Shown: positions 9,011-41,806 of the stretch, in pieces
How the letters are laid out: each line of letters starts with the position of its first letter
Numbering within the stretch: position 1 is the stretch's first letter
Assembly (NCBI GenBank): GCA_018816555.1
Contig: JAHIVT010000059.1
Location: 7,309-71,308, forward strand
Direction of reading: 5' to 3'
DNA: 64,000 nt
Origin: Pseudomonadota bacterium
GTDB lineage: Bacteria > Desulfobacterota > Desulfobulbia > Desulfobulbales > SURF-16
Translations under genes and position numbers: made by a program
Notes under the pieces: generated by a model
Databases searched by the model: none
What the model was told of the DNA's origin: nothing
Seen by the model: the letters and a program-made list of their open reading frames with translations, nothing else

Positions 9011-11336
9011 TCTTTTTCATTTTCCTCAGCGCTTCAAGTTGTTTCGGATTGATCATCACCGTTTCAGAAAGTCCGGCCTCCGCGGCATCAGGCAACTGCT
9101 GTTTCGCCGGGGCCGTCTTGTTCTCCCTCGGTGCCGGGGCGGCGGCCTTGGCGTTGCGGCCGGCAAGCAGTGCGGCAACAGCATCGGCACTCATAACCAC
9201 TGTCTTTTCCAGATCAGCTTGCTCTGCAGTCCGGGTTTTGCCGGGTGTTCCCCCGGCTGGCGCAGCGGCCTGCGCGCCGCCCGGCCTGATGGTGGGCGGC
9301 ACCTCATCAACAGTGGCATCGGCCTGGGGGGCACTGCCGGACTGGGTATGCTGCTGCATGAGCGCCGCAAGCTGGTCCGCACTCATCATTACTGTTTTTT
9401 CCAGGTCGGCTTGCTCCTCCGCGCCGGGATGCTCCTTTTTCTCTGCGGTCTTGTCTGTTGGTGACACATGGCTGGTGGTCGGCGGGGCACTGCCGGACTG
9501 GACTTCTTTCTGCATGAGCGCCGCAAGCTGGTCCGCACTCATCATTACTGTTTTTTCCAGATCTTCTTCCTCCGGCAGCTCCGCTACCTGCTCATCACCA
9601 TGATCAGCCGTTTCTGCGGCAACTTCCTGCACTGCGGCTTCGGTTGGCAGCTCCGCCATCCACCTCTGCCTGATGCCGAGCAGAATGCGACTGATGGCTG
9701 CATCGCTGTCTTCGGCAGCCATTGCCGTTACCTCTACTGCCTCAACGGCAAACAGGCTCTGCTTTACCTCCTCGGCAAGGCTTGACAGCCGAAGGGTAAA
9801 GGTTGCCGCCGAAAAATCAGAAGCCGGCTGGCAGGATTGGCGCAGCAAAGACCAGCCCAGGACCAGGGCCTGCTGCCAGAGGCCAAGCCATGCAGTGGGA
9901 AGCTGTTGCTGGACAGGCTGCCAGAAAATATTGCCCGGATTCAACACGGGGCTGTGATCTGCTGAGACCAGAAAATCCGGTTGCACCTCTGCCTGATGCC
10001 GTTCATAAAAAGCGGCGAGCATCTGGGCTATATCCCGGGCCGCAACCCTGCTGTTTACCAGCAGGACATTGAACCACAGCAGGGCAAGGGAGTGGATGCC
10101 AAGGGATTCCGGCACCTTGAGGAAAGCGGATCCCTCTGGCGGCGTCAAGCCGACGGCCAGGGGCATGGCCCGGAAATTCCAGAAATAAGGCAACGGCCCC
10201 TCATAGTCGGCAAAGTCAACCCAGAACTGATCAATGGTAAGCCGCAGGTCGGCATGCTGCAGATGGGACAAGGCGGCAAAAGAGGCTCTGCTGACCTGGG
10301 CAAGCAGGCCAAGTTTCAGATAGAGCGCCTCCAGGAAACGTCGTCCGTCCTGGAAAAACAGGGCTATCCTGCCCTCCTGCCGGCCGCCCAGGGCCTTGAC
10401 ACAGACTGCCCGGCCAGGCAAACCCGCTGACTCAAGCCGGGCGGCAAGCTCCTCTGTGGACGCCCCTGAAATAAGGGAAAGAAAATCGCCGGCATGGAGC
10501 TGCCGGGCATGGGTGGCGACCATACGGAACGGATAAAAGGCCAAGGGAATAATCCTTGTCGCAGCCAGCCTGTCAGCAGCGTAACACTCCGCGCACTGCG
10601 GGCAGCCCCGGCAGGGAAAAGCTGTCACCGCAACATTATTTTCGATGAGATGGGCAAATTCATCTATCAGAATTCGCTGGTTCTTCACCGAAGGAGCGGC
10701 GGTATCCGGAGCAGCAAAAGCAAAAAACTCCGCCTGCCCCGTAGCGATCTGACAGGAGGGACAGAAGAGAAAACGCTGCAGGCTTACAGAATAGGCCGGC
10801 AGGCCGGCGGCCAGCAGCACCTCATCCGTGCTGCAGAGTTCCAGCAATTGGCCGCAACGGGGACATGGGGGATGAAAATAACGTTGCCGGTGCAGACAAT
10901 AAAACAGTGACCTCCACAGCGGTGTCGCGCTGCCGCCGGTGGCATGCTGAGTGGTGGAAAAGGGACAGCCGACATCTTCAGCGGCGGCTTCCCCTGCCAG
11001 TTGCCACAGCGCATCGATATCCCGGTTGCTGAAGGGCACCTGGGTTTCCGAAAAGGAGTACTTGTCCTTCTGCACCAGCAGAAAGACATCCTTGAGGGAC
11101 TGTGGCGATCCAGCGGTGAAAGCGGCGGGAATGAGGCGGGCAAGGGGCGAAAAGGCATCAAGAAACGGAAAGTCAGGCGGTGTGATGGAAACAGGTGAGT
11201 CCACGCCAGGCGCAGAAACCTTCAGGTAAATCTTGGAGGATTCCGGATCAAGCCAGGGGAGCAGGGATTCGGTTGACAAAATGTGATCCACGCAGACATC
11301 CTTATTACGAGTGAACGGGAATTCATTCAAATGCAT
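9000..11336 (-). CDS. Large hypothetical protein with Cys-pair (zinc-ribbon-like) motifs and a C-terminal tandem-repeat region; first gene of the T6SS-oriented block
   Basis: 778 aa. Cys pairs are CPRCGQLLELC, CPSCQ and CRGCPQCAEC. The C-terminal third carries four copies of a D-L-E-K-T-V-M-M-S-A-D-Q-L-A-A-L-type motif, and the 156-bp period is visible in the DNA. Confidence 0.6.
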   Translation of the reverse strand: MHLNEFPFTRNKDVCVDHILSTESLLPWLDPESSKIYLKVSAPGVDSPVSITPPDFPFLDAFSPLARLIPAAFTAGSPQSLKDVFLLVQKDKYSFSETQVPFSNRDIDALWQLAGEAAAEDVGCPFSTTQHATGGSATPLWRSLFYCLHRQRYFHPPCPRCGQLLELCSTDEVLLAAGLPAYSVSLQRFLFCPSCQIATGQAEFFAFAAPDTAAPSVKNQRILIDEFAHLIENNVAVTAFPCRGCPQCAECYAADRLAATRIIPLAFYPFRMVATHARQLHAGDFLSLISGASTEELAARLESAGLPGRAVCVKALGGRQEGRIALFFQDGRRFLEALYLKLGLLAQVSRASFAALSHLQHADLRLTIDQFWVDFADYEGPLPYFWNFRAMPLAVGLTPPEGSAFLKVPESLGIHSLALLWFNVLLVNSRVAARDIAQMLAAFYERHQAEVQPDFLVSADHSPVLNPGNIFWQPVQQQLPTAWLGLWQQALVLGWSLLRQSCQPASDFSAATFTLRLSSLAEEVKQSLFAVEAVEVTAMAAEDSDAAISRILLGIRQRWMAELPTEAAVQEVAAETADHGDEQVAELPEEEDLEKTVMMSADQLAALMQKEVQSGSAPPTTSHVSPTDKTAEKKEHPGAEEQADLEKTVMMSADQLAALMQQHTQSGSAPQADATVDEVPPTIRPGGAQAAAPAGGTPGKTRTAEQADLEKTVVMSADAVAALLAGRNAKAAAPAPRENKTAPAKQQLPDAAEAGLSETVMINPKQLEALRKMKKNDK
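9180..9600. repeat. Intragenic tandem repeat with a roughly 156-bp (52-codon) period inside the 778-aa gene
   Basis: ctgcatgagcgccgcaagctggtccgcactcatcattactgttttttccag occurs identically at 9354-9404 and 9510-9560, and gcactgccggactgg precedes both copies. A diverged third copy lies near 9180-9230 and a degenerate fourth near 9003-9070. Confidence 0.8.
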
Positions 11337-11642
11337 TTGCTCATTATTAGATTCACTTTAGGTAATATTTCTTTTAATTTCAACTTCTTTTAACAGAATC
11401 TTTCCCGCTGGCAATCAGGAGAACCCTGTTGGCATTTGTCTTCATCTGCATACCGGAAGAGATGTCCTTGAATTCCCATCCAAAAAAAATGATTTTGCCT
11501 TTTCTCATTTTTATAACATAATAATGCAGGCAGCAACCTCTCTCAGGCTCGACCTCGGGACTGCCGAAAATCCGTCCCGTTTCCACTACTATTGCATCTT
11601 GCAGGAGAAAAACCTTTTCACCACTCAAACAAGGAGTCCAAA

Positions 11643-11957
11643 ATGAAAAAAATCGCTACACTACTCGCCGCATCATGTGCTCTCGTGCTCTTTGCGCTGC
11701 CGGTCCAGGCTGAAGAGGCCTCGGTGGAACTCGGCCACACCCTGTTTAATGATGCGGGGCTGGGAGCATCAAAAAATGACAAAAGCTGCAATACCTGCCA
11801 TGAAAACGGTAAAGGCATGGAAAAGGCGGGCGCCAGTTCCGATCTGGCCGCTCTGATCAACAAGTGTATCAAGGGCCCCCTGCAGGGTGAAGGAATCAGC
11901 GAAGATACCGTTGCCATGGAGTCCCTTAAACTGTACATCAAATCGCTGGCAAAATAG
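11643..11957 (+). CDS. Small secreted mono-haem c-type cytochrome
   Basis: It has the signal peptide MKKIATLLAASCALVLFALPVQA and a CxxCH haem motif (CNTCH). The SD AAGGAG lies upstream of the ATG at 11643; the track ORF starts earlier, at 11592. Confidence 0.7.
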   Translation: MKKIATLLAASCALVLFALPVQAEEASVELGHTLFNDAGLGASKNDKSCNTCHENGKGMEKAGASSDLAALINKCIKGPLQGEGISEDTVAMESLKLYIKSLAK

Positions 11958-11974
11958 CCGGTCAAAACCCACAA

Positions 11975-12020
11975 AAAACACGGTTGTAAACAGGAACGTT
12001 TTACAGCCGTGTTTTATTTT
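11975..12020 (+). terminator. Rho-independent terminator after the cytochrome c gene
   Basis: A 16-bp stem pairs aaaacacggttgtaaa (11975-11990) with tttacagccgtgtttt (12000-12015), with one G.U pair. The loop is 9 nt and a T-rich tail follows. Confidence 0.7.
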
Positions 12021-12034
12021 CCCAGGAGACAGAA

Positions 12035-12763
12035 ATGACCCAGATGCTCATCTATGAGAAAATCGTTGTTCTCGACATCAAGAAACACAAAAACACCAGA
12101 GTTGCCCCGGTGACTGATTTTTCCTTTGCCGCCTCGGCCAATTCCATACCCATTGCCGGGGTGGAATTCATCGAGGCGTCAAAGGATTACCCCATTGCCT
12201 TTATCAAAAACAGCCAGAGCGCTTACATCCCCACCATCATTTTAGGGCTGCAGGACAACCAGAACCTCTTTGTCTCAAAGGAAGGAAAGTGGAACGCCTT
12301 TTACATTCCCGCCTACATCAGGCGTTATCCGTTCGTGCCGTCAACCACCAATGAGGCAGGCAAGCTGAACATCTGCATCGATGAAGCATACAAGGGAATT
12401 GACGCGGAAAAGGGCACTCCCGTCTTCAATGAAGACGGAACCCCGGCGCCGATGCTGGAAAAAGCGGTACAGCTGATCCAGGATTATCATATGCAGATGC
12501 AGCATACCAATTCCTTTACCTCCCGCCTGGCGGATAGCGGCGTGCTGCAGGAAATGAAGGCCGAATTCGGCACCAGGGACGGCAGCAAGAAATTCAGGCT
12601 GAGCGGAATCTTTGTGGTGAATGAGGAAAAACTGCGCGCCCTCGATGATGCAAAGGTGCTCGATTTTTTCAGAAAAGGCGAATTTGCCTGGATTTACAGC
12701 CATCTGACCTCGCTCTCCAATTTCGCGAGGATGCTGGACAAATTCTTTGCCCAGCCGAAATAG
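12035..12763 (+). CDS. SapC family protein
   Basis: 242 aa. The N-terminal pattern (ANSIPIAGVEFIEASKDYPIAFIK, YIPAYIRRYPF) is typical of SapC. Confidence 0.6.
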   Translation: MTQMLIYEKIVVLDIKKHKNTRVAPVTDFSFAASANSIPIAGVEFIEASKDYPIAFIKNSQSAYIPTIILGLQDNQNLFVSKEGKWNAFYIPAYIRRYPFVPSTTNEAGKLNICIDEAYKGIDAEKGTPVFNEDGTPAPMLEKAVQLIQDYHMQMQHTNSFTSRLADSGVLQEMKAEFGTRDGSKKFRLSGIFVVNEEKLRALDDAKVLDFFRKGEFAWIYSHLTSLSNFARMLDKFFAQPK

Positions 12764-12809
12764 GAGACTCATCCGCCGATAACAGGGATGCCATCTTTCC
12801 CGCCTCTCC

Positions 12810-15077
12810 TCAGCTGTACAGGATCTCCATTTTCCATCCATGCAGGATGCCGGTATCCTGGGCGGCCAGGTCACTCACCACAAGCGTCCAGTCTCCATGC
12901 ATCGCAGCACCAACCAGCTCACGCAGTACGTCGTCAGTGCGGGTGCTGTAGGTTTTTTTTATGTCATGGCGACTGGAACCAGACCGGTCATGCAGCACCA
13001 TTTCCCTGCCGGACGGATCAATGAGAATGAGCTGCAGATCCCCTACCCAGGTATGGGAGATATCAACGGTCACATCAGCATGGAGAATGGTGCCGTTCTC
13101 CTCAACGGAGATGGTGCCGGCAACCCCCTGGGGACTGTTGTCCGGGATGGGCAGCTCAGGTCCAACCTCCCTGGCCAGGCTTTTCTGTTCAAGCTTTTCC
13201 ACTGCCATGGTCAATCCCCAGCTGGCCAGTGTGCCCTGATCAAGCCGGGCATGATCGGCCACGATGAGCTGCCACTCTCCCTGCACCATATCGCCGACAA
13301 ACTTCACCAGATCAGGGGTGCCGTCAATGCGGTACTCCTCAATGATGTCATCCTCCTCCCCTCCGGTGCGGTCGTGGAGCACAACCTCCTCGCCGCCGGG
13401 GGACACCAGTCGCACCCGCAGGTCGTTTATGTAGGAATGGTTAATCATGACCACCACGGTTAATTCCCTGAGTATCCCCTGCTCATCAATAACAATGGAG
13501 CTGCTGACTCCCTGGGGCTTATTGTCCGGGATGGCAAGCGACGGGCTGATCTCCTTGTCGATCACGGCGAACCGGGCTGCCGGTTCGCCCACCCCGACCG
13601 CGGCCCAGGCATTCTTGATGGCGGCATATTCCCTGCCCTTGTCGCCGTAAAGCTGGCGGCAGGCATTCAGCGCCGCAAAGCGCGCCTGCTCAAAGGTCCA
13701 GCGGCTCAAGGTGGAGCTGCGCATATATTCGGTCAGACCGAGAAAATAGATCTGCTCCGCCTTTTCCCTGCCTATGCCCTCCACCGTGATGCCGTGGTAA
13801 GTGCCCCCGGCAACGGTGAGATAGGCCGCCTTGCAGGGAATGCCGCAGTTATAATGAACCCAGCCCAGGTCATTTTTTTCCCCATCAGGCAGCTCCTCGG
13901 GCCGGATATGCATGAAAGAGTCCATGTGGTCCGGCAGACCATAGCGGGAGGGATCTGACAGATCGCGCAGGGCGTCGCCGCTGCGGTAAGGGGTATAGAC
14001 TCCCTCACCCATCTGCCAGTCCACTATCTCCCCGTCACTGGATATCATCACCCCGAAGAAATCGGCAAACGCCTCATCCAGGGCGCCGGACTCTTCGGCG
14101 TAGACAAACCGGGCGGTACAGGAGGTGATGGCATGGGTGAATTCATGGCCGACAATGTCCAGGGCATAGGCCAGCGGCAGCCACTGCCGGCCGTCACCGT
14201 CCCCGTAGACCATCTGCTTCCGGTAGCTGTTCCAGTAGGCGTTGTTGTAGGACTGGCCAAAATGCACCGTGGAAACCAGGGGAGAACCCTGGTTGTCGTA
14301 ACTGTCGCGGCCGAAGGTCTTCTGGTAATATTTATAGACCTCCCTGGCATTGTTATGGGCAGCCTGCACCACCTCATCGGTGGAAGTCTGTTCATCCTGG
14401 ATGACCAGGGTACCTGGCAGAGTCTGCTGATTTTTTGCCGTGTAAGTCTTCTGTGCCATGATGGCCCTGCTTTCGGAAAAGCGGTAGAGCACGCTGCCGT
14501 CATGGGCATCGATGAAATAATAGCGGGCGCCATGCTCATGCTGGACCACTATTTCCACCTGCCAGGCCAGATGCACTTTTCCGTCGGTATGCCGGTAGAG
14601 GCAGAGGCCGCTCTTATGCTTCTCCCCCTGCTCCTCCCCGATATCAGCCATGGCGACATGCACGGCATTCACCTCGCTGAAGCGCGGCTGGAAATCCACA
14701 TCCGCCTCGGCCAGCCGGTTATCCTTGTAGGCGGTCACCACCCCGTCATTGCTGATATGCACCTGCACTGAACCCTCATGCACCGGCACATCCCGGATAA
14801 ACTGCGCCAGACAGACATGCGAATGGCCATGGCTGTCACGTTCAATGGATGACACCTCAAGCTGCTCGGAAACACCAGCAGCCAAGGCAAAAAGTTCTCT
14901 GTTATCCGAAATAAAGGCCCGGGCAATGGTTTCCGGACCATCCCCTGAGGGGGCGGAGAGGCGTCCCATGATAAATTTGGCTATTTTGCCATTGTCACTC
15001 CAGAAGATTCTGTTATCCGCATCACCGGTCAGCAGCCGCCCGGATGCCTCTTCCTGTTTTTTCGTTAATTGCATCAC
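12810..15077 (-). CDS. M4 (thermolysin-like) zinc metalloprotease with two C-terminal proprotein-convertase P-domains
   Basis: The HExxH motif is VGHEFTHAIT, and the third zinc-ligand region is LDEAFADFFG. Two P-domain-like modules are present (INHSYINDLRVRLVSPGGEEVVLHDRTGG and ISHTWVGDLQLILIDPSGREMVLHDRSGS). I see no obvious N-terminal signal peptide. Confidence 0.8.
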   Translation of the reverse strand: MMQLTKKQEEASGRLLTGDADNRIFWSDNGKIAKFIMGRLSAPSGDGPETIARAFISDNRELFALAAGVSEQLEVSSIERDSHGHSHVCLAQFIRDVPVHEGSVQVHISNDGVVTAYKDNRLAEADVDFQPRFSEVNAVHVAMADIGEEQGEKHKSGLCLYRHTDGKVHLAWQVEIVVQHEHGARYYFIDAHDGSVLYRFSESRAIMAQKTYTAKNQQTLPGTLVIQDEQTSTDEVVQAAHNNAREVYKYYQKTFGRDSYDNQGSPLVSTVHFGQSYNNAYWNSYRKQMVYGDGDGRQWLPLAYALDIVGHEFTHAITSCTARFVYAEESGALDEAFADFFGVMISSDGEIVDWQMGEGVYTPYRSGDALRDLSDPSRYGLPDHMDSFMHIRPEELPDGEKNDLGWVHYNCGIPCKAAYLTVAGGTYHGITVEGIGREKAEQIYFLGLTEYMRSSTLSRWTFEQARFAALNACRQLYGDKGREYAAIKNAWAAVGVGEPAARFAVIDKEISPSLAIPDNKPQGVSSSIVIDEQGILRELTVVVMINHSYINDLRVRLVSPGGEEVVLHDRTGGEEDDIIEEYRIDGTPDLVKFVGDMVQGEWQLIVADHARLDQGTLASWGLTMAVEKLEQKSLAREVGPELPIPDNSPQGVAGTISVEENGTILHADVTVDISHTWVGDLQLILIDPSGREMVLHDRSGSSRHDIKKTYSTRTDDVLRELVGAAMHGDWTLVVSDLAAQDTGILHGWKMEILYS

Positions 15078-30898: not shown

Positions 30899-31831
30899 AT
30901 GTCAAACGCCAAGAAAACCGCCCCCAGCAAAACAATTATTATCCTTGTTCTTCTCGCCCTTGCCGCTGTTGCAGCATTGCTGATAGTAAATGCCAGCCGG
31001 AAAGCGGACAAAAAAACGGCCATCTCCCTGGAGCAGGAGCAGCAGAAACTCCAGGAAAAGGTAAATATTCTTGACAAGGAACTTGCCGCCCCGGAAGGCT
31101 CCGAATCCGGAGGTCAGAGCGAATCTGCCGGCATGCAGACCGAGTCCGGCGCCGAGGCTGATAACCAGGCAGCAGGCAAAGACATTACCATGGATCCCTG
31201 CAAAACCACCTCAGCCGGAATTGATAGGTTTTTTACCCGGCTGGACCAGGAAGATTACATTATCGATCTCAACCTGGAAGGCGGTTCAAAGGCATACTTC
31301 ATCACGGTCATCAATAAGCTGCTGGCCAACAAGCCCACCATCACCAGGGAAACTGACAATCTGCTGTCCATACTCCAGAATGCCGCCCACTTTTATCGTG
31401 TGCTGGGCGAAAAAAATATCTTTACCCTGAAAAAAATCATGGCCCTGGAAAAAGGTCAATTAGAACCGGTGATGGCTGACTTTTACTCTCTCATCCTGCA
31501 CCGGGATGAATGCCTGAGCGTTCAATATCCGATCCAGTTGCCCATGGAGGATTTGTACAGCTATTCGACCTTCTTTCTCAATACCCTCGGAGGCCAGTCC
31601 TATCTGTTTCGCCGAGAACCGGCTTTCAGGACCCTGGTCAAATATTACTGCGTGCTGGTCATGGACCTGGCCAACATGAAGAACGCCAATCCTCTGGGCA
31701 TTGATATCAGATATCCCATCAACAGCCTGATCGAGGAAATGACTGCGACATCCGGCCTGGAGAATAAGGACAAATACCTGGATAATCTTCTCCAGCTGCA
31801 GGAAAAGTATAAAACACTGTATGGCAACTGA
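30899..31831 (+). CDS. Hypothetical membrane-anchored protein
   Basis: 310 aa. It has an N-terminal TM anchor (IIILVLLALAAVAALLIV), then a coiled/acidic linker. No family recognised. Confidence 0.5.
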   Translation: MSNAKKTAPSKTIIILVLLALAAVAALLIVNASRKADKKTAISLEQEQQKLQEKVNILDKELAAPEGSESGGQSESAGMQTESGAEADNQAAGKDITMDPCKTTSAGIDRFFTRLDQEDYIIDLNLEGGSKAYFITVINKLLANKPTITRETDNLLSILQNAAHFYRVLGEKNIFTLKKIMALEKGQLEPVMADFYSLILHRDECLSVQYPIQLPMEDLYSYSTFFLNTLGGQSYLFRREPAFRTLVKYYCVLVMDLANMKNANPLGIDIRYPINSLIEEMTATSGLENKDKYLDNLLQLQEKYKTLYGN

Positions 31832-31878
31832 AATCTGAGATTCCCTGATTTCCGCCAACCTGGCCATAACATAAAGAA

Positions 31879-31912
31879 AGGGAACTGACCGCACAGTCAG
31901 TTCCCTTTTTTT
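31879..31912. terminator. Rho-independent terminator hairpin between the convergent 310-aa gene and the RyR gene (end of the cassette)
   Basis: The stem pairs agggaactgac (31879-31889) with gtcagttccct (31895-31905), followed by a T-run to 31912 on the plus strand. The minus-strand tail is T/C-rich, so it may act in both directions. Confidence 0.7.
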
Positions 31913-31933: not shown

Positions 31934-32251
31934 TTATTGCCGAAAAATTCCAAGCCTGATCATTTCGGCAATGATCGCCTTGGCACCCTCCACGTCGATT
32001 CGTTTTTCCGATTCCGGGAGGTGCTCATACGGGACGAGATTCGGCTGCAGCTTCCGGGCTTCATCCCGCTCTTCCCCGTAGCGCCACCCCTGGCCAATCC
32101 TCTCCGCCGCCCACCTGTCATGGTTGACCCGGGCGATTGCCTCCAGCGCGTCGCCCATGACCGCTGCCGCACGCTCCAGTTCGTCGCGACCGGCAATCCG
32201 CGGCTCATACTCCCCGAAAGGTGTCGCGATCTTTTTTACTGCCGCGCTCAA
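31934..32251 (-). CDS. Small RyR-domain protein (ryanodine-receptor repeat, Pfam RyR type); fourth gene of the cassette
   Basis: 105 aa. NHDRWAAERIGQGWRYGEERDEARKLQPNLVPYEHLPESEKRIDVEGAKAII matches the RyR pattern (H-x-x-W-x-x-x-R-x-x-x-G-W-x-Y-G...P-x-L-V-P-Y-x-x-L-P-E-x-E-K). A TTG start at 32251 overlaps the CHAT gene stop (TTGA), and an SD AGGAGA lies 7 nt upstream. Confidence 0.7.
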   Translation of the reverse strand: MSAAVKKIATPFGEYEPRIAGRDELERAAAVMGDALEAIARVNHDRWAAERIGQGWRYGEERDEARKLQPNLVPYEHLPESEKRIDVEGAKAIIAEMIRLGIFRQ

Positions 32252-34215
32252 GGTCTCTCCTTTTGGGGGGATACATTACTGTCACCGAGCGCGGCAAGTG
32301 CGGCCCTGGCAAAATCATCCCATTCATTTTGTTTCCAGATATCGACATAGCGGCGGAACTGCCGCATGGTTGATTGCACGGGAAACTCCTTGGGACCACA
32401 AGTTTCCAGGATCTCGTTGCAGCAACGGATAATTTCCTTCTTAGCCTCCTCCGCACTGTACTGCTCGCCTCCATAAAGAGCGCCCAGCATTTCCAGTTCC
32501 GCCAGCGTTCCGCAGGCCCAGGCCCGCTCGCTCCCAACCGCATTGAGCAACCTCCAGTGGCTGATTTGCCGAGCTGTGCTCCACCAGTGACCATGTTTTT
32601 TTGCCAATTCGGTCATGCCGACTTTTTCAGCCCTCATTAAGACCGCCAGCATTGACAGATACTGGGTGATAACCCAGTTGTTGGAGGGCTCGGCCACCAT
32701 GGCCTGCCTGTATAACAGGCAGCATTTCTGATAGGCTTCCAGTTTTTCCTTCTCCTTGCCTGCGATCTGCTCATAGGCGATGCCGATCCGTTTTTCACTG
32801 GCAGCGCTCACCCCCAGTCGTTCAGCCAGTTCCCTGTCGGAAGATTGCGCCTCAGGTTCTTCCCGCCATGCTTGCAGTTCCTCACGGATGGAGGCACAGA
32901 GACCATCCATCTCCCCGGTCACCGTTTTCTCATCCTGGCCCTCAAACTCTCCGATCTTGAGCAGATCATCGATCCGCGCGAATTTGGTTTCGATCCGCCC
33001 GCGGGTCTGCTTTTCGCGAAAATCGCTGACCTGATTTTCAAAATCCCAGGGCACGGTTGCATAGGTCACGATACTCGCCCAGTCATGCGTTTCCGGGCAA
33101 GAGGTGCGCAGACGCTGCCGCACTTCGTGGAGGACGCAGCGGGGATCGGCCCCCTTGAGCAGACGTTTGTACAGTACTTCAGTAAAGATGGTCGAGGAAC
33201 GCATCCACAGGGGAAACTGGGAGGCAAAGACCCAGGGGATGCCGGCGGCGTGCAGCTCGTGGGCTATGCTGCCGCCGGGGGTGAGCACGGAGCGCACATT
33301 GCCGGAATCGCAGGTTGCCAGCGAGAGCACAGTGGGCCGATGACGGGCGGCGCAGTCCAAAGCGCGGTCCGTGGTAAGGGCAATGGCGAGCCGCTCGCCG
33401 TCAACCACATCGACCTCTGCCGGGTTCGTGCTGTCGCACAACGCAAGCCCGTACTGCTGGTCGCCGGCATGATCATAGGGGGCGCCGTGGGCCAGGATAT
33501 GGACATGGGTGTACTCGGTATCCATACAGGCCTGCCGGATCTGCTCAAGCGTTGCTTCCGGCAGCACGGTGAGTATATTTTTTACCTCGGCCAGCCGCGC
33601 TTCCTCACTGTTCTTGATTTTTATCCAGGGGTCAATAGCGCGGCGCAGGGCAACCAGATGCCGTTCGGCAGGCACCACCGCGAGTCCGCCAGGGGAGGCA
33701 AAGATAAACAGGATGCGGGGCGGACGATTCCATTCCACCGGCAGGGGCCGGCCGCGCCGCACCTCCCTGGTCAGGGTGATGGGTGTCTTTGATTGCAGAA
33801 AGAGCGGCGAACCGGATCCGGGAAAACCTGCCGGGGCAATGGCCGCCTCAAAAGGCAAAAGAGCCAGTTCAAAACCGGAAAGCGACAGCCGCAGATGCAC
33901 AAACTTTCCCTTGGCCGCCTGGACGCTGCCGAGTTCGGCAAGCAGGCCGGGAACCTGGCCGAACATCTGACCGATGGTCTCGCCCAGTTCGCGCAGCTCG
34001 GCCTCCCGCTGACCTGCGGGCACAGGTGTTCCCTCGGTGTAATAGCGGAGCCGTTCCAGGCGGATGAGCAACTGCCGCTGTTCAAAGGGCAGGCGTACGG
34101 TCACCGGTCCGTCGGCACCGCAGAGGACGAGGTAAGGGGTCAGCGGTGACAGGAGCTGGTTGTGCGCCGGGCCGGGTCGCAGGATTTCCAGTTTGACGTT
34201 GTGGATCTCAGACAT
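32248..34215 (-). CDS. CHAT-domain (caspase-like) protease with a C-terminal helical-repeat region; third gene of the cassette
   Basis: The His/Cys dyad context is THVHILAHGAP (His codon at about 33487-33489) and VLSLATCDSG (Cys codon 33310-33312). An upstream ELALLPFE motif is typical of CHAT N-regions. I prefer the ATG at 34215 (MSEIHNVKLEIL) with SD GAGG, 4 nt after the stop of the upstream gene; the track ORF extends to 34362. Confidence 0.8.
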   Translation of the reverse strand: MSEIHNVKLEILRPGPAHNQLLSPLTPYLVLCGADGPVTVRLPFEQRQLLIRLERLRYYTEGTPVPAGQREAELRELGETIGQMFGQVPGLLAELGSVQAAKGKFVHLRLSLSGFELALLPFEAAIAPAGFPGSGSPLFLQSKTPITLTREVRRGRPLPVEWNRPPRILFIFASPGGLAVVPAERHLVALRRAIDPWIKIKNSEEARLAEVKNILTVLPEATLEQIRQACMDTEYTHVHILAHGAPYDHAGDQQYGLALCDSTNPAEVDVVDGERLAIALTTDRALDCAARHRPTVLSLATCDSGNVRSVLTPGGSIAHELHAAGIPWVFASQFPLWMRSSTIFTEVLYKRLLKGADPRCVLHEVRQRLRTSCPETHDWASIVTYATVPWDFENQVSDFREKQTRGRIETKFARIDDLLKIGEFEGQDEKTVTGEMDGLCASIREELQAWREEPEAQSSDRELAERLGVSAASEKRIGIAYEQIAGKEKEKLEAYQKCCLLYRQAMVAEPSNNWVITQYLSMLAVLMRAEKVGMTELAKKHGHWWSTARQISHWRLLNAVGSERAWACGTLAELEMLGALYGGEQYSAEEAKKEIIRCCNEILETCGPKEFPVQSTMRQFRRYVDIWKQNEWDDFARAALAALGDSNVSPQKERP

Positions 34216-34219
34216 GTCT

Positions 34220-35713
34220 TTACCTCGTGAACTGTTGAATGATCGTGCGGGTGACGGGATCGGTTCCTGCAATGTGGGCCAGTTCGCCGACCACTGTGCC
34301 GTCTTCGTCGGCCCTGATGCAGACCGCGCTCTGTTGCCGCAGGACAAAGGATTGCCGGTCAAAGACCGCCTGATCGATATCCTTCATCCGGCCTTTGACA
34401 AGCAGCTCATACACCGGCTTGAAGGTTTCTTCGCTGGCAAGCATGGCCTCGGTGAAACGGAGCAGGCGGATCCAGGTGCCGCAATTAAAATAAAAACGGC
34501 CGCCGCCCAGATCGATGGCGCGTTCAAGATGGGTATGACCGGTGACGATGAAATGGATACCCTGCCCCACCGAGTCGACCATCTCCTTGCAGGCGTCGTC
34601 CCGGTCCGCTATCTCGAAAGTCTTGTCACCCTTGAGCCAGTCTTTCAGTGCCCGGCGCAGGGCCTCGATCTTGCTGACGCCGCTAAACCAGCCGGTGAGC
34701 CGGTCCCAGAGATACTGGCCGGTACCGAGGGTTTCGTCCTGGGGATCAGTGACGGCGCTGCCGGTCTTGTATTGCTTTTCCGCCGCCAGCAGCAGGGCGT
34801 CGGCTGAGGGACGGCTGGCCCCGGCACCGCTGCGCAGTCCCTCCATGAGGTTTGGTCCCAGCAGACCCTCCACAGCCACGGGCCGTGCCTGCTTTTTGGC
34901 CGGGGCGGTGAAACCCTCGGCCGAAAGCCGCTGGTCCACCTCCCTGCTGCCCTCCACCTTCTCACCGATAACCGGGATGAGGCGGTTGATCTTTTCGAGC
35001 TGGCCGGGGTCAAGGGCCAGGAGCACGCCGACAGCGGCCGTCATCTCCGGTTTTAAAAGGTCAATCCAGGGATATTGCCCCTTCACCTTGTTCATGACGT
35101 CCTTGACCATCTTAGTGCCGGCGTTGGGCTCCCATTCGCCAGCCTTAAGCGATCGGCCGCTGTTGAGCCGCCGGGCCGCCTTGGCGAGGTCCTCGTAACG
35201 GACATAGTTCCAGGCGTCCACTTCGTTGCCGTGGGTGCAGAACACCCGGGCGCCGCCCACCAGGCAGGAGTAGCCGGCCCCCATGGTGGAAAACTCGATG
35301 CGGGCCCGGGCCAGGAGATCAGCACCGGCGAGCCGTTCGACCACGGCGCGCTGTACCACCGGAAAAGACAGCTCAAGGTCGTGGTTGCCAAGGGCGATGA
35401 CCAGGGTGCGTTTGTCAATTTTCACAAAATCCGCCAAGGCTTCCCAGATGGGGGCAAAAGCAGGATCTGCCATGATCCGTTTGATCACGGTCTCGGCATT
35501 GTCCACGGCGATGTAGCCGCCGCTCTCCTCGGCCAGGGTGTCGATGACATCACCGTTTAAGACCAGGGCCACTTGCCCGTCCGGCTTTTGTGCCGCCACC
35601 CAGCGGATGAATCCCGCCAGTTTCCCGGTCTCCCGGAGAATCTGAAAACCGGGTTCACCTCCCATGTGGAGGTCGGAGATGACATGAACTTCGTCGAATT
35701 GGGGTAAGGGCAT
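34220..35713 (-). CDS. Calcineurin-like metallophosphoesterase; second gene of the cassette
   Basis: All five MPE motifs occur in order: VISDLHMGG (DxH), NGDVID (GD), LGNHD (GNHD), CTHGNE (H) and VTGHTH (GHxH). A roughly 180-aa insertion precedes the last motif. An SD AAGGAG lies 8 nt upstream of the ATG at 35713. Confidence 0.8.
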   Translation of the reverse strand: MPLPQFDEVHVISDLHMGGEPGFQILRETGKLAGFIRWVAAQKPDGQVALVLNGDVIDTLAEESGGYIAVDNAETVIKRIMADPAFAPIWEALADFVKIDKRTLVIALGNHDLELSFPVVQRAVVERLAGADLLARARIEFSTMGAGYSCLVGGARVFCTHGNEVDAWNYVRYEDLAKAARRLNSGRSLKAGEWEPNAGTKMVKDVMNKVKGQYPWIDLLKPEMTAAVGVLLALDPGQLEKINRLIPVIGEKVEGSREVDQRLSAEGFTAPAKKQARPVAVEGLLGPNLMEGLRSGAGASRPSADALLLAAEKQYKTGSAVTDPQDETLGTGQYLWDRLTGWFSGVSKIEALRRALKDWLKGDKTFEIADRDDACKEMVDSVGQGIHFIVTGHTHLERAIDLGGGRFYFNCGTWIRLLRFTEAMLASEETFKPVYELLVKGRMKDIDQAVFDRQSFVLRQQSAVCIRADEDGTVVGELAHIAGTDPVTRTIIQQFTR

Positions 35714-35737: not shown

Positions 35738-38686
35738 TTATGGTGTCTGAATGGTGGCCTTGGCCGGGTCGGCGACGGCCAGCAATTTTTCAAGTTCCTG
35801 GACTTCCCGGTCCCGACGGTGGTAGCCGGTTTCCGCGACCAGTTTTTTGACCTTAACTAGGTGTTCGCGGGCGGAGGGCAAGTCGTTTTCGGCCAGCAGC
35901 AGTCGGCAGCTCTCGAGATGATAATCGGTGAGGAAGAGACGCATACCGCAGCGTTCGGCGATTTCAAAAACTTCGTCCAGGTCGCGGCGGGCAGAGCCAA
36001 ATTGCCCCTGCTCCCGGCAGAAGAAGGCCCGGTCCAGCAGGCCGCGGGGAAGATAATCCTGTCTCCCTGCCTTACGCAGGAAATCAACGGCCACGGCCAG
36101 ATGGCTGACGGCTTCGGCCGTCTCGTCCAGCCGCTGGCAGGCCCGGCATAGGGTGAGATGGTCCAGGCCGATGTCGAGGGGCCAATTTTCAGCCTTAATC
36201 CATTCAAGAGTTTTCTCCGCCCGCTCCCTAGCCTCGGCCGGCCGGTCGAGTTCAAGGAGCAGGTCACAGTAGCGATAGCCCTGCAAGGAGTAGAGGAAAG
36301 GGTACTGGGGCTGGCACTCCCGCTGCATGGCCTCGGCCTGGCGGAACAGCTCCTCCGCTTCGGCCAACCGGCCGTCCTGATGGAGGGAGCCAGCACGGGT
36401 GGTGCGGGTGGCCAAGTGCCAAAAGGCATCACCGCTCTGGTCGGCCAGCTCCACCGACCTTTTCCCATACTCCATAGCCCGGTCCAGGTCACCCGTGACG
36501 AGGAAAAGTTCGCTGAGGTTGCCGGCAATGATGGTCGCATCTTGCCAATTTTCCTGCTGGACCCGCATTTCCAAACCGGCCCGCATCGGCCCGGCCGCCT
36601 CGTCCAACCGACCCAGGGCTCGGAGGCTGAAACCGGCCCAACTCAGAAGCGCCGCCTGATCAAATTCGCGAAGTCCGGTCGCGGGCCGGTCCCAAAGCTT
36701 CTCGAAAAAGTTAGCCAAGGCGCCCAGATCGGAGCCGAATGCGCCGAGTTTGCTCGTGCAGTAATGGTCGGTCATCCTTATGAGTCGTTGCCAGTAAACC
36801 TCCTCCAGCGTCTCCTGCTGCCGGCCGGCCCGGCAGCCATGGGCGCAGGCGTAAAAAAGCGGAGCCATTTCCTCGATGGTGTCCGGCAGTTCCCTGGCAA
36901 TGCCCTTGTAATGCTCATAAAGCCGCAGGTTGCCCTCCTGCCAGGCTGAGGGGAAATGCTTTTGAAGAAGGTCGGCCATATGCTCCCGCACCAGGGGGTG
37001 GCAGTCCAGGTCGCCGGGGCGATGGCTGCTTGTCGGGGCCAGGAGACCGAAGCGCCGCAGTCGACTGAGGCACTCATGGCGGTCTCCTTTTTCCACTGCC
37101 ATGATGCGGCCGGTCAACTCTGGGATGGCCGGCGGGGTGAGGAGTGCTGCCAGGGCCTCCCTGTCGGCCGGGCGATCAAAGAGGCCAAGGAGCCGCAGAT
37201 ACTCGACCTCCGGTGAATCCCCTAAAAGACCGACCAGGGCGGCCATAACCCGCCGGGGTTGGCGACCATGCTCCTCGGGGAGGTCCAGGTCAGGGATATC
37301 GGCCGCGTGTTGGATGTGGTGTTCGGGGATCTCATGGAGATAGGCGGCCAGGAGCTTGACGGCCAGGGCGTGGTTGCCAAAGGCTCGCGAAGCCTCCTCC
37401 AGCTCCAGGTCCGTGCCCCGCACCCCGCCCACGCGCAAAAGCGCTCGGCCGGCTGCGGCGGAAATCTGCTCCAGGTTGCGTGCCTGAACGGTTTGCGGGA
37501 AACGACGGAGATCAGCCACCTCTTCCCGACTGGTGATGAGGCAGAGGCCGGGATTATTCCTGGCCAGTTCCGTGACCAGGGCAGCAAGGCCGGGGTCCTT
37601 GATGCGGCCCTTGTCAAAATCATGCTCGGCCTGCAACGGCTCCAGGCCGTCCAGCACCAGCAGCGTCCGCTGCTGCTTGATGAGGCCTGCCAGCCGCTGG
37701 CCCTTGTCCCAGGGAGAGCCGGTAATAGGATTCGGGTCGCCGAACCAGGCCAGGGCCCCGGCAATGAAGCGGTCCGCCGAGGTGACCCGCTCCCCGCTCC
37801 CCTGGCTGTAAAAAGACCAGCCAAAGACTCGGGCCGCACCGCGATAGTTGTCCGCGGCCATCTCGGCAAGCCAACGGTTGACCAAAGTGGATTTGCCCAC
37901 CCCACCCCAGGCAACAAAAGAGATAATATTGGTTTTGCCCTGCTCCCAGGCACTGTCCAGTAACTCAAGCTCCGCCTCCCGACCAAAGAGTTCTGCCCCG
38001 GTTATAGGCAGACGGGAGATCTCCACCGGAGGCAGCAATAATTCCAAGAGCGAGGTTGGCGTACTTGATTGGCTGAGTGCTTCTTCCGAAAAGTCAATGT
38101 TGAGCAAGAAATCCTGTTCTGTGGGAATGTCCTTATCAGAGAGGCCCGGCAGTGACGGTCCCATTACATTGCCAAGGATCTCATCAATCAACAGATTTTC
38201 AAAAACGAAAGCCTCATGCTCCGGGACGGTCTGCTGCGCCTGTTCCGCCACCTTGATAGCAAAATCCGCGAGCTGCTGTTTCCGCTTTGTTTTACCCCTA
38301 ATGGCAGCAAGACACTTGTTGCCGGTGGGAAACATCTGGATGCCTTTGAGCCAGCGGATGGCCTGCCACGGGCAGGGCTCAGCCAGTAGGGGCAGGATGG
38401 TCAGGTTTTCAGCCGCCCGCCGTTTAAGCAGGGCCGGCACCTCCTCCTTGATGATAAAATCCGAGGCCAGAAAATTTTTGGTGATGAGGCAGACCGCTAC
38501 TCGGGCCCCCTCCACCGCCTCTTTAATCTCCGGGTACCAGTCAGCGCCGGTGTTGATCTTGCGGTCATGCCAGAGCAGCAGATCGCCTTGCTGCTCAAAT
38601 GCCTTGAGATGGGGGAGAAGCTGATTTTTCCACTCCTCATCCAGGTGGCTATAACTGATGAACACCGTGGGCCTGGCAGTACTCAT
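35738..38686 (-). CDS. TIR - NB-ARC (STAND NTPase) - TPR protein; first gene of the cassette
   Basis: The N-terminal TIR is TVFISYSHLDEEW...ARVAVCLITKNFLASDFIIKEE. Walker A is AWGGVGKSTL (DNA 37886-37907). Walker B is NB-ARC-like, TLLVLDGLE, followed by CLITSRE. About 550 aa of C-terminal TPR-like repeats follow. The start is either the ATG at 38686 or the TTG at 38746. Confidence 0.85.
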   Translation of the reverse strand: MSTARPTVFISYSHLDEEWKNQLLPHLKAFEQQGDLLLWHDRKINTGADWYPEIKEAVEGARVAVCLITKNFLASDFIIKEEVPALLKRRAAENLTILPLLAEPCPWQAIRWLKGIQMFPTGNKCLAAIRGKTKRKQQLADFAIKVAEQAQQTVPEHEAFVFENLLIDEILGNVMGPSLPGLSDKDIPTEQDFLLNIDFSEEALSQSSTPTSLLELLLPPVEISRLPITGAELFGREAELELLDSAWEQGKTNIISFVAWGGVGKSTLVNRWLAEMAADNYRGAARVFGWSFYSQGSGERVTSADRFIAGALAWFGDPNPITGSPWDKGQRLAGLIKQQRTLLVLDGLEPLQAEHDFDKGRIKDPGLAALVTELARNNPGLCLITSREEVADLRRFPQTVQARNLEQISAAAGRALLRVGGVRGTDLELEEASRAFGNHALAVKLLAAYLHEIPEHHIQHAADIPDLDLPEEHGRQPRRVMAALVGLLGDSPEVEYLRLLGLFDRPADREALAALLTPPAIPELTGRIMAVEKGDRHECLSRLRRFGLLAPTSSHRPGDLDCHPLVREHMADLLQKHFPSAWQEGNLRLYEHYKGIARELPDTIEEMAPLFYACAHGCRAGRQQETLEEVYWQRLIRMTDHYCTSKLGAFGSDLGALANFFEKLWDRPATGLREFDQAALLSWAGFSLRALGRLDEAAGPMRAGLEMRVQQENWQDATIIAGNLSELFLVTGDLDRAMEYGKRSVELADQSGDAFWHLATRTTRAGSLHQDGRLAEAEELFRQAEAMQRECQPQYPFLYSLQGYRYCDLLLELDRPAEARERAEKTLEWIKAENWPLDIGLDHLTLCRACQRLDETAEAVSHLAVAVDFLRKAGRQDYLPRGLLDRAFFCREQGQFGSARRDLDEVFEIAERCGMRLFLTDYHLESCRLLLAENDLPSAREHLVKVKKLVAETGYHRRDREVQELEKLLAVADPAKATIQTP

Positions 38687-38746: not shown

Positions 38747-39018
38747 AAATGAATGATTGCTCAGAAAAAAACCCGCAATTAAAGAATTTGCAAGAGAAAA
38801 CTGCTATGAGATGGCAGGAAAAAGAAAAAAAAGGAAGAAAGCGGATGGGGATGTAGGGGCACCCCTTGTGGGTGCCCTATCCCAGGCGGATACCGAATTG
38901 GCCATCATGCAGTACGCGAACTCTAACTGCCTGGACAGTGGCAAACAACGGGTAGCCCGCTCCCAGGGCACCCACAAGGGGTGCCCCTACAGGAATGACA
39001 ATTGGCAATCATTCATTT
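38747..39018. repeat. MITE-like 272-bp element bounded by 14-bp perfect terminal inverted repeats and containing a pair of inverted palindromic modules
   Basis: The terminal inverted repeats are aaatgaatgattgc (38747-38760) and gcaatcattcattt (39005-39018). The internal module tgtaggggcaccccttgtgggtgccct (38862-38888) recurs as its reverse complement at 38964-38990, and each copy is itself a hairpin (gggcaccc/gggtgccc). Confidence 0.7.
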
Positions 39019-41041: not shown

Positions 41042-41806
41042 TCACGTCTCTGAAAGAATTCTAAACATATCACCCGGTTCCGGCAGAAAAACATGGAGCC
41101 CGCCAGTTCCGTCCAGCCCGGCAACTTTTTTCTTGGCGGTTTCTCTGCAGGTTCGCTCCAGATGTACCAGGGCAAGATGTTTCCCCCCGGCGCGGCTGGC
41201 AAATTCGAGGCATTTCATGATATTGCCGTGGTTTTCCACCTCCCTGTCCAGCCTGAAGGCCTCGTGCACGATCAAATCACATCCTGCTGCCAGAGTTTCC
41301 GTTTCCCTGGTCGGCCTGCCATCCCCGCTGTAAAAAATCCGGTGGCTGCCGTCATCAATGCGTATGGACAGACAACGCTGGGAATGGATATTTTCCGCCG
41401 AGCTCCAGTTCGTGCCGGCAATTTCCCGGGCCTGTCCCGGTTCTATTTCCACAAAATCAAGGTGGTACATGAGCCGCGGCAGAAAGCCGGGGTAGGCAAG
41501 CTCCATGGCCGCCGTAATCTTTTCCAGGATGCCCTGCTGCCCGGCAATAACCAGCTTTTTCCTCCGGCCCATTTCCCAGAATCTGAGGAGCAACAGCGGC
41601 ATGCCGAAAAAATGATCGCCATGAAAGTGAGAAATCCAGACAGCGTCCAGTTCGTCCGGATCGCTGCTCAGACCAAAATAGAGATGGGGGGTGGTAAAAC
41701 CGCAGTCCAGCAGGAACCGCTGCCCCTTTCCCGCTGTCACATGAAGCGAGGTATTGGGACAGTGTTGATCGCAGGCTTCGCCAACCCCTAAAAAGTGTAT
41801 TTTCAT
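41042..41806 (-). CDS. MBL-fold metallo-hydrolase (RNase Z-like)
   Basis: 254 aa. The HxHxDH motif is ISHFHGDHF and the N-terminus is MKIHFLGVGEA. Confidence 0.75.
   Translation of the reverse strand: MKIHFLGVGEACDQHCPNTSLHVTAGKGQRFLLDCGFTTPHLYFGLSSDPDELDAVWISHFHGDHFFGMPLLLLRFWEMGRRKKLVIAGQQGILEKITAAMELAYPGFLPRLMYHLDFVEIEPGQAREIAGTNWSSAENIHSQRCLSIRIDDGSHRIFYSGDGRPTRETETLAAGCDLIVHEAFRLDREVENHGNIMKCLEFASRAGGKHLALVHLERTCRETAKKKVAGLDGTGGLHVFLPEPGDMFRILSET

Follow-up and report, generated by a model that had tools for sequence, protein, structure and literature searches.

A metallophosphoesterase–CHAT protease gene pair, joined to a TIR-STAND gene in a Desulfobulbales bacterium, as a probable two-gene module of anti-phage defence

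Trypsin- or caspase-activated nucleases of the metallo-β-lactamase (MBL) fold feature disordered gating loops that must be cut (PMC12799240), and the CHAT-fold proteases Csx29 (type III-E “Craspase”) and SAVED-CHAT (type III-B/CBASS) act as sensor-switched enzymes cutting a specific co-encoded protein. Passages of Kaur et al. (2020, PMC7159879) on caspase-like peptidases of conflict systems describe these as always accompanied by an alpha/beta-hydrolase gene; there and in the corresponding passages of PMC8195603, STAND, TIR, calcineurin-like phosphoesterase, pYEATS and caspase domains are part of the same effector-sharing network. Here, we analyzed a gene for a CHAT caspase-like protease and its upstream partner, a gene for a calcineurin-like metallophosphoesterase (MPE), on contig JAHIVT010000059.1 (assembly GCA_018816555.1) of a bacterium of the Desulfobulbales. 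The whole stretch of 64,000 nucleotides (nt) is referred to as the window, and positions are numbered from its first letter. Both genes belong to an operon of four head-to-tail minus-strand genes in the order TIR-STAND-TPR, MPE, CHAT and RyR, hereafter named STAND, MPE, CHAT and RyR. The MPE-CHAT pair probably represents a two-gene module for anti-phage defence, in which CHAT may switch MPE on.

MPE and CHAT are almost certainly an obligate pair. In a scan with one genome per species, 328 loci with a relative of the window CHAT were found among 185,579 species genomes, and counts of loci given below refer to the best 80 of these 328, which share 44–80% identity with the window CHAT. In all 80 loci an MPE homologue ends just before the CHAT start (tblastn), and this holds for Thermodesulfobacteriota, Methylococcales, Nitrosomonas, Burkholderiales, Azotobacter, Shewanella, Rheinheimera and an alphaproteobacterium as well as for Acidobacteriota, Chloroflexota, Rokubacteria and a Brocadia-like planctomycete. 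The gap between both genes amounts to 5 nt or less, or the genes apparently overlap, in about 57 of the 60 loci in which both open reading frames (ORFs) were called, the exceptions being split or frameshifted copies; negative gaps reflect start-codon over-extension rather than real overlaps. Because the greedy longest-ORF caller took antisense ORFs in some loci rich in guanine and cytosine (GC; cluster “asMPE”), pairing was taken from tblastn and not from the ORF clusters. Moreover, the pairwise identities of the two proteins correlate with each other (r = 0.85, 61 genomes). Since no other neighbour is conserved and STAND and RyR are found in few loci, the unit of function is MPE plus CHAT, a horizontally mobile two-gene cassette. 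Split, truncated or frameshifted copies of MPE or CHAT (loci L006, L015, L055, L079 and L088), e.g., an MPE of 305 + 154 amino acids (aa) in L088 and a CHAT of 611 + 101 aa in L055, suggest decay of the cassette in some genomes.

The pair is also carried by a 37.5-kb Methylobacterium plasmid (L089, NZ_CP099612.1; 36.6% identity). At this plasmid locus (9186–14084), a divergent cluster of four genes encoding a Dam methyltransferase, a second metallophosphoesterase and two hypothetical proteins lies beside MPE-CHAT and may be another defence operon.

In the window, the MPE gene (34220–35713, minus strand) encodes 497 aa with a match to Pfam Metallophos (E = 9e-9). Its TAA stop codon (34222–34220) is followed by the four nucleotides AGAC and then by the CHAT start codon, and a GAGG Shine-Dalgarno motif abuts the MPE stop 7 nt 5' of this ATG; the complete junction (34216–34226, minus strand), consisting of Shine-Dalgarno motif, stop codon and spacer, reads TCACGAGGTAAAGACATG. 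The CHAT gene (32248–34215, minus strand) extends from this ATG (34215–34213) to a TGA codon (32250–32248) and encodes 655 aa. The program-made ORF list also gives a 704-aa ORF from a TTG at 34362; its beginning lies within the 3' end of MPE, and it is therefore an artefact of mechanical ORF calling.

An earlier reading of this DNA, made from the sequence alone and here called the sequence-only reading, had assigned the gene product to the CHAT caspase-like proteases. It matches the Pfam family CHAT (PF12770, caspase-like, clan CD) with 84.5 bits (cut-off 24, E = 1.2e-23) over aa 76–384, which corresponds to positions 2–286 of the 289 of the profile. The strings VHILAHGAP and SLATCDSGN contain His243 (33489–33487) and Cys302 (33312–33310), respectively; neither H243-G244 nor C302 is substituted in sets of 24 and of 61 homologues, and the HG and C of an unrelated CHAT domain, that of locus L090 described below, occupy the equivalent alignment positions. 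In an AlphaFold2 model built on 24 homologues, the catalytic core (aa 160–390; 33046–33738, minus strand) reached predicted local distance difference test (pLDDT) values of mostly 75–90. The best fold match of this core in the PDB was the SAVED-CHAT filament 8tl0 (Foldseek E = 3.6e-6 to 1e-5, probability 1.0, root-mean-square deviation 3.5–4.3 Å over ~225 columns), while structures of Csx29 matched weakly (E about 0.02). Profile search, fold search and conservation hence agree, and confirm the gene as coding for an intact CHAT protease, as predicted by sequence and model. The assignment of the sequence-only reading is upheld, as is the intact His/Cys dyad at catalytic positions that it had described; the distance of 4 nt between MPE stop and CHAT start, also described there, is correct, and the coupling to MPE turned out to be conserved across phyla.

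In the PDB, no significant relatives were retrieved by sequence, whether the CHAT or MPE family profile or the CHAT core served as query. NCBIfam and PADLOC contain no family for MPE, CHAT or RyR, except for a partial match of CHAT to the PADLOC model SAVED_CHAT, which covers profile positions 114–268 of 498 and thereby the CHAT part only; Pfam likewise gave no match to a SAVED domain in the CHAT protein.

The catalytic core is followed by an all-helical tail (aa 391–655), which was modelled with pLDDT values around 90 and for which Foldseek returned TPR proteins. The sequence-only reading had proposed about 300 aa of helical repeats at this place, and its helical nature is supported by model and fold search, but the length is rather ~265 aa. 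The C-terminal TPR/TPR-S-like domain itself can be placed at aa 391–645 (32281–33045, minus strand). Pfam TPR-S matched the tail below threshold (E = 0.025), and three CHAT homologues have a precomputed match to this family (PF20308). In conservation profiles, which were calculated from 61 homologues for CHAT as well as for MPE, the N-terminal 60 aa of CHAT and aa 296–390 around the catalytic Cys are most conserved, and the tail from aa 420 to 655 is least conserved. Rare members of the family feature additional C-terminal domains, namely an AAA ATPase (P0363, 1262 aa), a prokaryotic YEATS domain (P0376, 889 aa) or a trypsin domain (P0497, 919 aa).

The N-terminal 155 aa of CHAT (33751–34215, minus strand) are highly conserved, yet their pLDDT stays below 55 when the protein is modelled alone. 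No Pfam family matched within the N-terminal 166 aa, and neither the AlphaFold2 model nor the Pfam scan gave a recognizable ligand-binding fold in this region. An exhaustive HMMER search with the 155 aa retrieved 532 cluster representatives (clusters at 50% identity); among the 150 matches listed, the region is located at the N-terminus, nearly always of CHAT proteins of ~650 aa. This sequence appears therefore to be confined to this particular family of CHAT proteins. A Death-like or EAD adaptor fold, for which a search had been suggested in the sequence-only reading, finds no support here: besides the lack of Pfam matches and the confinement to the family, profile-profile comparison (hhalign) revealed no domain shared by CHAT and MPE (probability 1.7%). 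The adaptor hypothesis was rejected on the basis of these three analyses; the N-terminus of STAND is a TIR domain, and STAND was not compared directly.

The MPE partner retains all five metallophosphoesterase motifs, i.e., D14xH16, G54D55, G109N110H111, H161 and G392H393xH395, each of which is invariant. Between motifs IV and V, an insertion of ~180 aa (aa 163–344; 34682–35227, minus strand) occupies the same topological position as the lid of LpxH and is a candidate gating or docking segment. The MPE core was modelled with pLDDT values above 85 and the insertion with values below 50 over aa 163–176, 186–205, 222–234 and 241–344; structural interpretation was confined to the confidently modelled parts of both AlphaFold2 models. 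The first half of the insertion is highly conserved, and the stretch around aa 250–330 is variable and rich in indels. Within it, the dipeptides R262-L263 (34925–34930), L285-G286 (34856–34861) and L329-G330 (34724–34729) are conserved to at least 95%. Such a pattern of variable coil and invariant motifs is as expected of a cleavage or docking site. The closest fold in the PDB was LpxH (E = 4.5e-6), followed by purple acid phosphatases, small subunits of polymerases, the zebrafish dimetal phosphatase 2nxf, which we take to be related to ADP-ribose pyrophosphatases, and Mre11. The sequence-only reading had seen no obvious substrate gene for the protease in this cassette; this view has to be revised, as the co-inherited MPE with its insertion in lid position is the best candidate and, judged by analogy to other protease pairs, would be the likeliest substrate of CHAT.

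We tentatively favour a mechanism in which MPE is gated by CHAT, while placing it slightly below an even chance. CHAT would act as a regulated endopeptidase rather than a housekeeping enzyme, and its tail, perhaps together with the N-terminal region, could sense a trigger or dock a partner. MPE would be held inactive by the insertion in lid position until activated CHAT cuts this insertion in the coil around aa 250–330. The cut enzyme could then release a phosphodiesterase or pyrophosphatase activity on nucleotides or nucleic acids, which would halt growth or phage replication.

The same features could also be explained by a CHAT protease acting as promiscuous executioner that degrades a multitude of cellular proteins after being triggered via its TPR tail, with MPE as an independent co-effector or stabilizing subunit and not as substrate. 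Promiscuous Arg-specific caspase-like proteases are known from type IV Thoeris and from type III-B PCaspase, and the active sites of both MPE and CHAT are intact. Moreover, the pattern of a conserved but poorly modelled CHAT N-terminus and of the MPE insertion is compatible with a mutual interface, which in this case could be constitutive. The characterized CHAT-family proteases Csx29 and SAVED-CHAT, however, cut specific co-encoded substrates, and the MPE insertion shows the mixture of variable coil and invariant motifs to be expected at a site of cleavage or docking; a promiscuous executioner thus appears rather unlikely to us.

A further option is that MPE-CHAT does not serve immunity at all, but represents a regulatory or stress module, e.g., for proteolysis coupled to the turnover of nucleotides or lipid precursors, with the TIR-STAND gene adjacent by chance. 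Apart from MPE and CHAT, even the most frequent neighbour families occur in at most 14 loci and are mostly of the housekeeping type (RNase E, RluC, GMC oxidoreductase, patatin, flotillin and CstA); the pair lacks a PADLOC model, and no relatives of it were found in the viral contig collection scanned. Typical signs of a conflict system argue against such a module: the distribution is patchy across phyla with 328 matches in the species genomes scanned, the cassette is found on a plasmid and, in the window, in an island of distinct composition, the C-terminus of CHAT is variable, and insertion sequence (IS) elements and decayed copies occur. In addition, fusions to an AAA domain and to the conflict-type partners pYEATS and trypsin exist, and TIR, SIR2, Cas3 and GajB-like genes recur in the neighbourhood. 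A role outside immunity is consequently the least probable of the options considered here.

In the window, the pair is embedded between two further genes. The first gene of the operon, STAND (35738–38686, minus strand; 982 aa), matches TIR_2 (E = 9e-14), weakly NACHT/AAA_16, and TPR_MalT and TPR_12 in Pfam and contains a GGVGKS P-loop. With a TIR effector, a P-loop NOD and a variable repeat sensor in one protein, it corresponds to defence-type TIR-STAND proteins of the Avs/bNACHT-like kind. The stop codon of STAND is separated from the MPE ATG by 24 nt holding an AAGGAGA Shine-Dalgarno motif. At the other end, the TGA of CHAT and the TTG start codon of RyR (31934–32251, minus strand; 105 aa) overlap as TTGA, and AGGAGA precedes the RyR start. 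A strong bidirectional intrinsic terminator (31877–31908, minus strand), a hairpin with a 14-pair stem and a T-rich tail, closes the four-gene operon and is shared with the convergent gene. The GC content of the four genes is uniformly high (0.596–0.613) in comparison to the flanking genes (0.47–0.55) and the whole window (0.537), and the four genes therefore look like a single acquired block.

Compared to its close relatives (P0241–P0247), STAND is 81–98% identical in the TIR and NOD parts and only 46–69% in the TPR sensor (aa 600–900), which is either fast-evolving or exchanged by recombination. More than 3500 matches in bacteria and archaea show how large the TIR-STAND-TPR family is, and homologues at 58–61% identity are solitary genes in unrelated contexts; for this reason, STAND alone looks like an autonomous NLR-type sensor with its own TIR effector. 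Among the 80 loci it was detected in L001 only, and all its occurrences beside MPE-CHAT (window, L001, L084/L085 and L092) fall within the lineage of the window. STAND is thus a lineage-specific add-on, and the proposal of the sequence-only reading that CHAT is a coupled partner of the STAND and MPE genes holds in general for MPE but not for STAND.

Several metagenome relatives of the window's lineage are occupied at the same chromosomal site, which is flanked on one side by genes for an SNF2 helicase, an MBL-fold protein, an AI-2E transporter and Bax1-I and on the other side by a 310-aa gene, a response regulator, a 181-aa gene, DUF6811 and T2SSF. In L092, a STAND gene of 76% identity is followed after 24 nt by an MPE gene that reaches the end of the contig after 437 aa, with 94% identity over this length. 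L084/L085 retain a C-terminal remnant of STAND and an IS110-type transposase, followed by MPE, CHAT and RyR. At L090 (GCA_018897105.1), STAND (77% identity) and RyR enclose a gene for an 1809-aa protein (8998–14424) replacing MPE and CHAT. This protein contains two alpha/beta-hydrolase domains (DUF7379/LCAT-like), a marginal match to Peptidase_M17_N, a domain that may be macro-like, a CHAT domain not closely related to that of the window, and TPR-S. Here, the effector slot was swapped, a hydrolase is joined to CHAT-TPR-S again, and STAND and RyR remained constant. This exchange is the best evidence that the hydrolase-CHAT slot is functionally tied to STAND and RyR.

Some further features of this region were observed. 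In the intergenic region 5' of STAND (38747–39018), perfect inverted repeats are nested: arms of 27 nt at 38852–38878 and 38965–38991, which are 86 nt apart and each of which forms itself a GGGCACCC/GGGTGCCC hairpin, lie within arms of 14 nt at 38747–38760 and 39005–39018. A 25-nt core of these repeats occurs at two places only in the window (chance expectation 0). They could represent an element related to miniature inverted-repeat transposable elements or repetitive extragenic palindromes (MITE/REP-like) at the island border, or an invertible promoter segment. The convergent 310-aa gene (30899–31831, plus strand; GC 0.497) has no Pfam family and belongs to the host backbone, with synteny conserved in L001 and L084. 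The 254-aa MBL-fold protein (41042–41806, minus strand) has precomputed Pfam matches to Anti-Pycsar_Apyc1 and Lactamase_B; as conserved backbone beside the island, which is also present in L090 and L092, it is probably a housekeeping MBL hydrolase.

Including the window's lineage, TIR-family genes recur beside MPE-CHAT in at least five architectures, namely TIR-STAND, DUF4062 (L002, L004), LRR-Roc-COR-TIR (L023), SIR2-TIR together with a WD40 protein (L024, L025, L047) and TIR-FGE-sulfatase (L027, a locus that also contains RyR). DUF4062 proteins have been reported as TIR-like NADases (2026 preprint, 10.64898/2026.05.01.722283). Another recurring neighbour is a protein of ~450–500 aa with MAP3K_TRAF_bd and TPR-S domains, which is encoded 5' of MPE-CHAT and overlaps the MPE start by 4 nt in L086/L087 (L086:3145–4506, L087:48–1469); the same family is adjacent to the pair in L006, L012, L032 and L033. 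The N-terminal ~80 aa of this protein (L006 copy) matched no family. It may constitute a third-gene variant of the MPE-CHAT system.

The RyR protein matches Pfam RyR (PF02026) with 65 bits (cut-off 27.4, E = 7e-18) and RyR repeats in the PDB with E-values down to 1e-28, and it retains H44xxW47 and D86. By tblastn, RyR was found in L001–L004 and L027, with a weak match in L045, and is absent from about 74 of the 80 loci. As an obligate or general CHAT substrate it was consequently rejected; of the two possible targets named in the sequence-only reading, RyR or MPE, the latter remains as best candidate. RyR accompanies MPE-CHAT in the window, L001–L004, L083, L084/L085 and L027 and the swapped effector in L090. 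A TIR-type NADase is encoded upstream in about 8 of 10 loci with RyR, the distant L027 among them; L003 and L083 are without TIR nearby. Phage-encoded RyR-domain proteins (RyDEP) cleave or sequester 2'- and 3'-cyclic ADP-ribose (cADPR) by means of a site consisting of a His/Asp dyad, a Trp and a phosphate-binding His (2026 preprint, PMC13232231). By analogy, binding or hydrolysis of ADP-ribose signals made by TIR is a more likely role of the window RyR than serving as CHAT substrate. In the window, the TIR-STAND sensor and RyR would probably add a TIR/NAD-derived signalling layer to the pair, in which RyR probably acts as a buffer that binds the TIR product or hydrolyses it.

These neighbours also allow for a different reading, in which the whole operon forms one integrated TIR cascade. 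TIR-STAND would sense a phage protein via its TPR and oligomerize, and TIR would produce an NAD-derived nucleotide that is bound by the CHAT N-terminal region and turns the protease on, similar to type IV Thoeris, where TIR-made N7-cADPR activates a caspase-like protease. The protease itself would be the killer, and MPE as pyrophosphatase as well as RyR as ribose-ribose glycosidase would degrade the signal and thereby set a threshold or reset the system. The compact operon, whose successive genes are 24, 4 and -4 nt apart and do not differ much in GC content, the recurrence of TIR-family genes, the TIR-type NADases upstream of RyR and the action of RyR domains on cADPR isomers (PMC13232231) are in line with this view. 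The resemblance of the MPE fold to NDP-X pyrophosphatases such as LpxH, the match to 2nxf and the Peptidase_M17_N match before CHAT in the L090 effector point in the same direction. Nevertheless, most MPE-CHAT loci have neither TIR nor RyR nearby, and erasure of a signal leaves the strict conservation of MPE at those loci unexplained. Moreover, the protease of the window is of the CHAT type and that of type IV Thoeris a C14-type caspase, the CHAT N-terminal region offers no recognizable ligand-binding fold, and the STAND homologues are usually solitary, with TIR probably being their own effector. An integrated TIR cascade with MPE as eraser is hence rather improbable. An even more ambitious and decidedly doubtful combination would be a three-tier cascade with a brake, in which an NAD-derived nucleotide of STAND-TIR activates CHAT, CHAT opens the latent MPE and RyR buffers or resets the response, while MPE-CHAT alone would constitute a new and widespread defence system.

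Returning to the CHAT-gated MPE, several points weigh against it. Cleavage of MPE by CHAT is purely an inference, and shallow alignments of 24 sequences may be the sole cause of the low pLDDT in the N-terminal region of CHAT and in the MPE insertion. The ranking of MPE among its structural subfamilies (LpxH, purple acid phosphatase, polymerase small subunits, Mre11) is weak in this model-based comparison and cannot fix the substrate class. TIR-family genes are near only about one in eight MPE-CHAT loci, and with about 85% of the loci lacking TIR in their vicinity, a general trigger by TIR signalling is ruled out; in the window, STAND and MPE-CHAT could be independent systems that are merely co-transcribed. 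As read from the alignment, the RyR protein carries Gln69 where RyR repeats have a conserved His, which maybe contacts phosphate. Finally, known defence genes are a minority among the mostly housekeeping immediate neighbours, so that genomic context alone does not establish a role in defence.

MPE-CHAT, which was detected at 328 loci in ~186,000 species genomes and in 532 clusters of proteins (50% identity), may be an undescribed two-gene conflict system. If the proposed gating is true, the rule of a protease unlocking a latent hydrolase, recently established for MBL nucleases, would also cover the metallophosphoesterase superfamily, and MPE would be a bacterial “caspase-activated phosphodiesterase.” The single site with constant STAND and RyR and a swapped hydrolase-CHAT effector offers a natural experiment on whether TIR-STAND sensors are able to drive CHAT proteases. 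Of further interest is the host-encoded RyR, which would allow testing whether RyR-domain proteins, characterized so far only as phage anti-Thoeris factors, also regulate ADP-ribose-type signals of the host. Like RyDEP (PMC13232231), it consists of a single R12-type RyR repeat of ~100 aa with conserved HxxW and Asp; in contrast to the phage-encoded anti-defence factor, it is a host protein whose gene belongs to a putative defence operon, and the presumed phosphate-contacting His appears to be Gln.

Among described systems, Csx29 and SAVED-CHAT share the CHAT fold with the window protein. Membership in the TPR-CHAT/Csx29 group was ruled out by the reversed order of CHAT followed by TPR, by MPE as partner and by the absence of cas genes from the operon, which holds STAND, MPE, CHAT and RyR only; a SAVED-CHAT was ruled out as the window CHAT has no SAVED domain. 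Likewise, the Pfam scan gave no gasdermin match among the operon genes or adjacent ORFs, which excludes a gasdermin-protease system. Type IV Thoeris (10.1101/2024.10.24.620036) resembles the window locus in that one operon encodes both a TIR protein and a protease of the caspase superfamily; here as well, a TIR-made nucleotide could act as activator. The window locus is, however, not a member of it: TIR is part of a 982-aa STAND protein and absent from most loci, CHAT is not C14-like, and a strictly conserved MPE is interposed.

The NTP-dependent conflict systems described by Kaur, Burroughs, Iyer and Aravind likewise pair a hydrolase with a caspase-like peptidase, as far as the passages concerned go. 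The hydrolase-CHAT-TPR-S protein of L090 is of this kind and echoes their hydrolase-caspase rule (PMC7159879). In contrast to the adaptor-coupled effectors in that work, no EAD or Death-like adaptor was found in the window CHAT. The MPE-CHAT pair and the family-specific N-terminal region of CHAT do not appear in the matching passages of PMC7159879 and PMC8195603, and no description of the pair was found in PADLOC-DB v2 or in the literature searched on CHAT and (metallo)phosphoesterases in defence, the coverage of which was incomplete.

By analogy, MPE-CHAT would work most like the protease-gated pairs of protease and pro-hydrolase, i.e., canu and other protease-gated pro-nucleases (PMC12799240). 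It is not a canu system in the strict sense, as its hydrolase is a calcineurin-like metallophosphoesterase instead of an MBL-fold nuclease, and its protease is a CHAT with a C-terminal TPR-S-like tail instead of a MALT1-like caspase with an Ig domain or a trypsin. In both cases, however, the genes for protease and hydrolase are co-inherited, as reflected by the complete pairing and the correlated divergence in the window family. The hydrolases of the described pairs carry disordered insertions near their active sites, and the low-pLDDT insertion of MPE at the position of the LpxH lid may correspond to these. Canu loci also feature caspase-family proteases with TPR partners, and various sensors, AVAST/STAND among them, can be linked to the pair.

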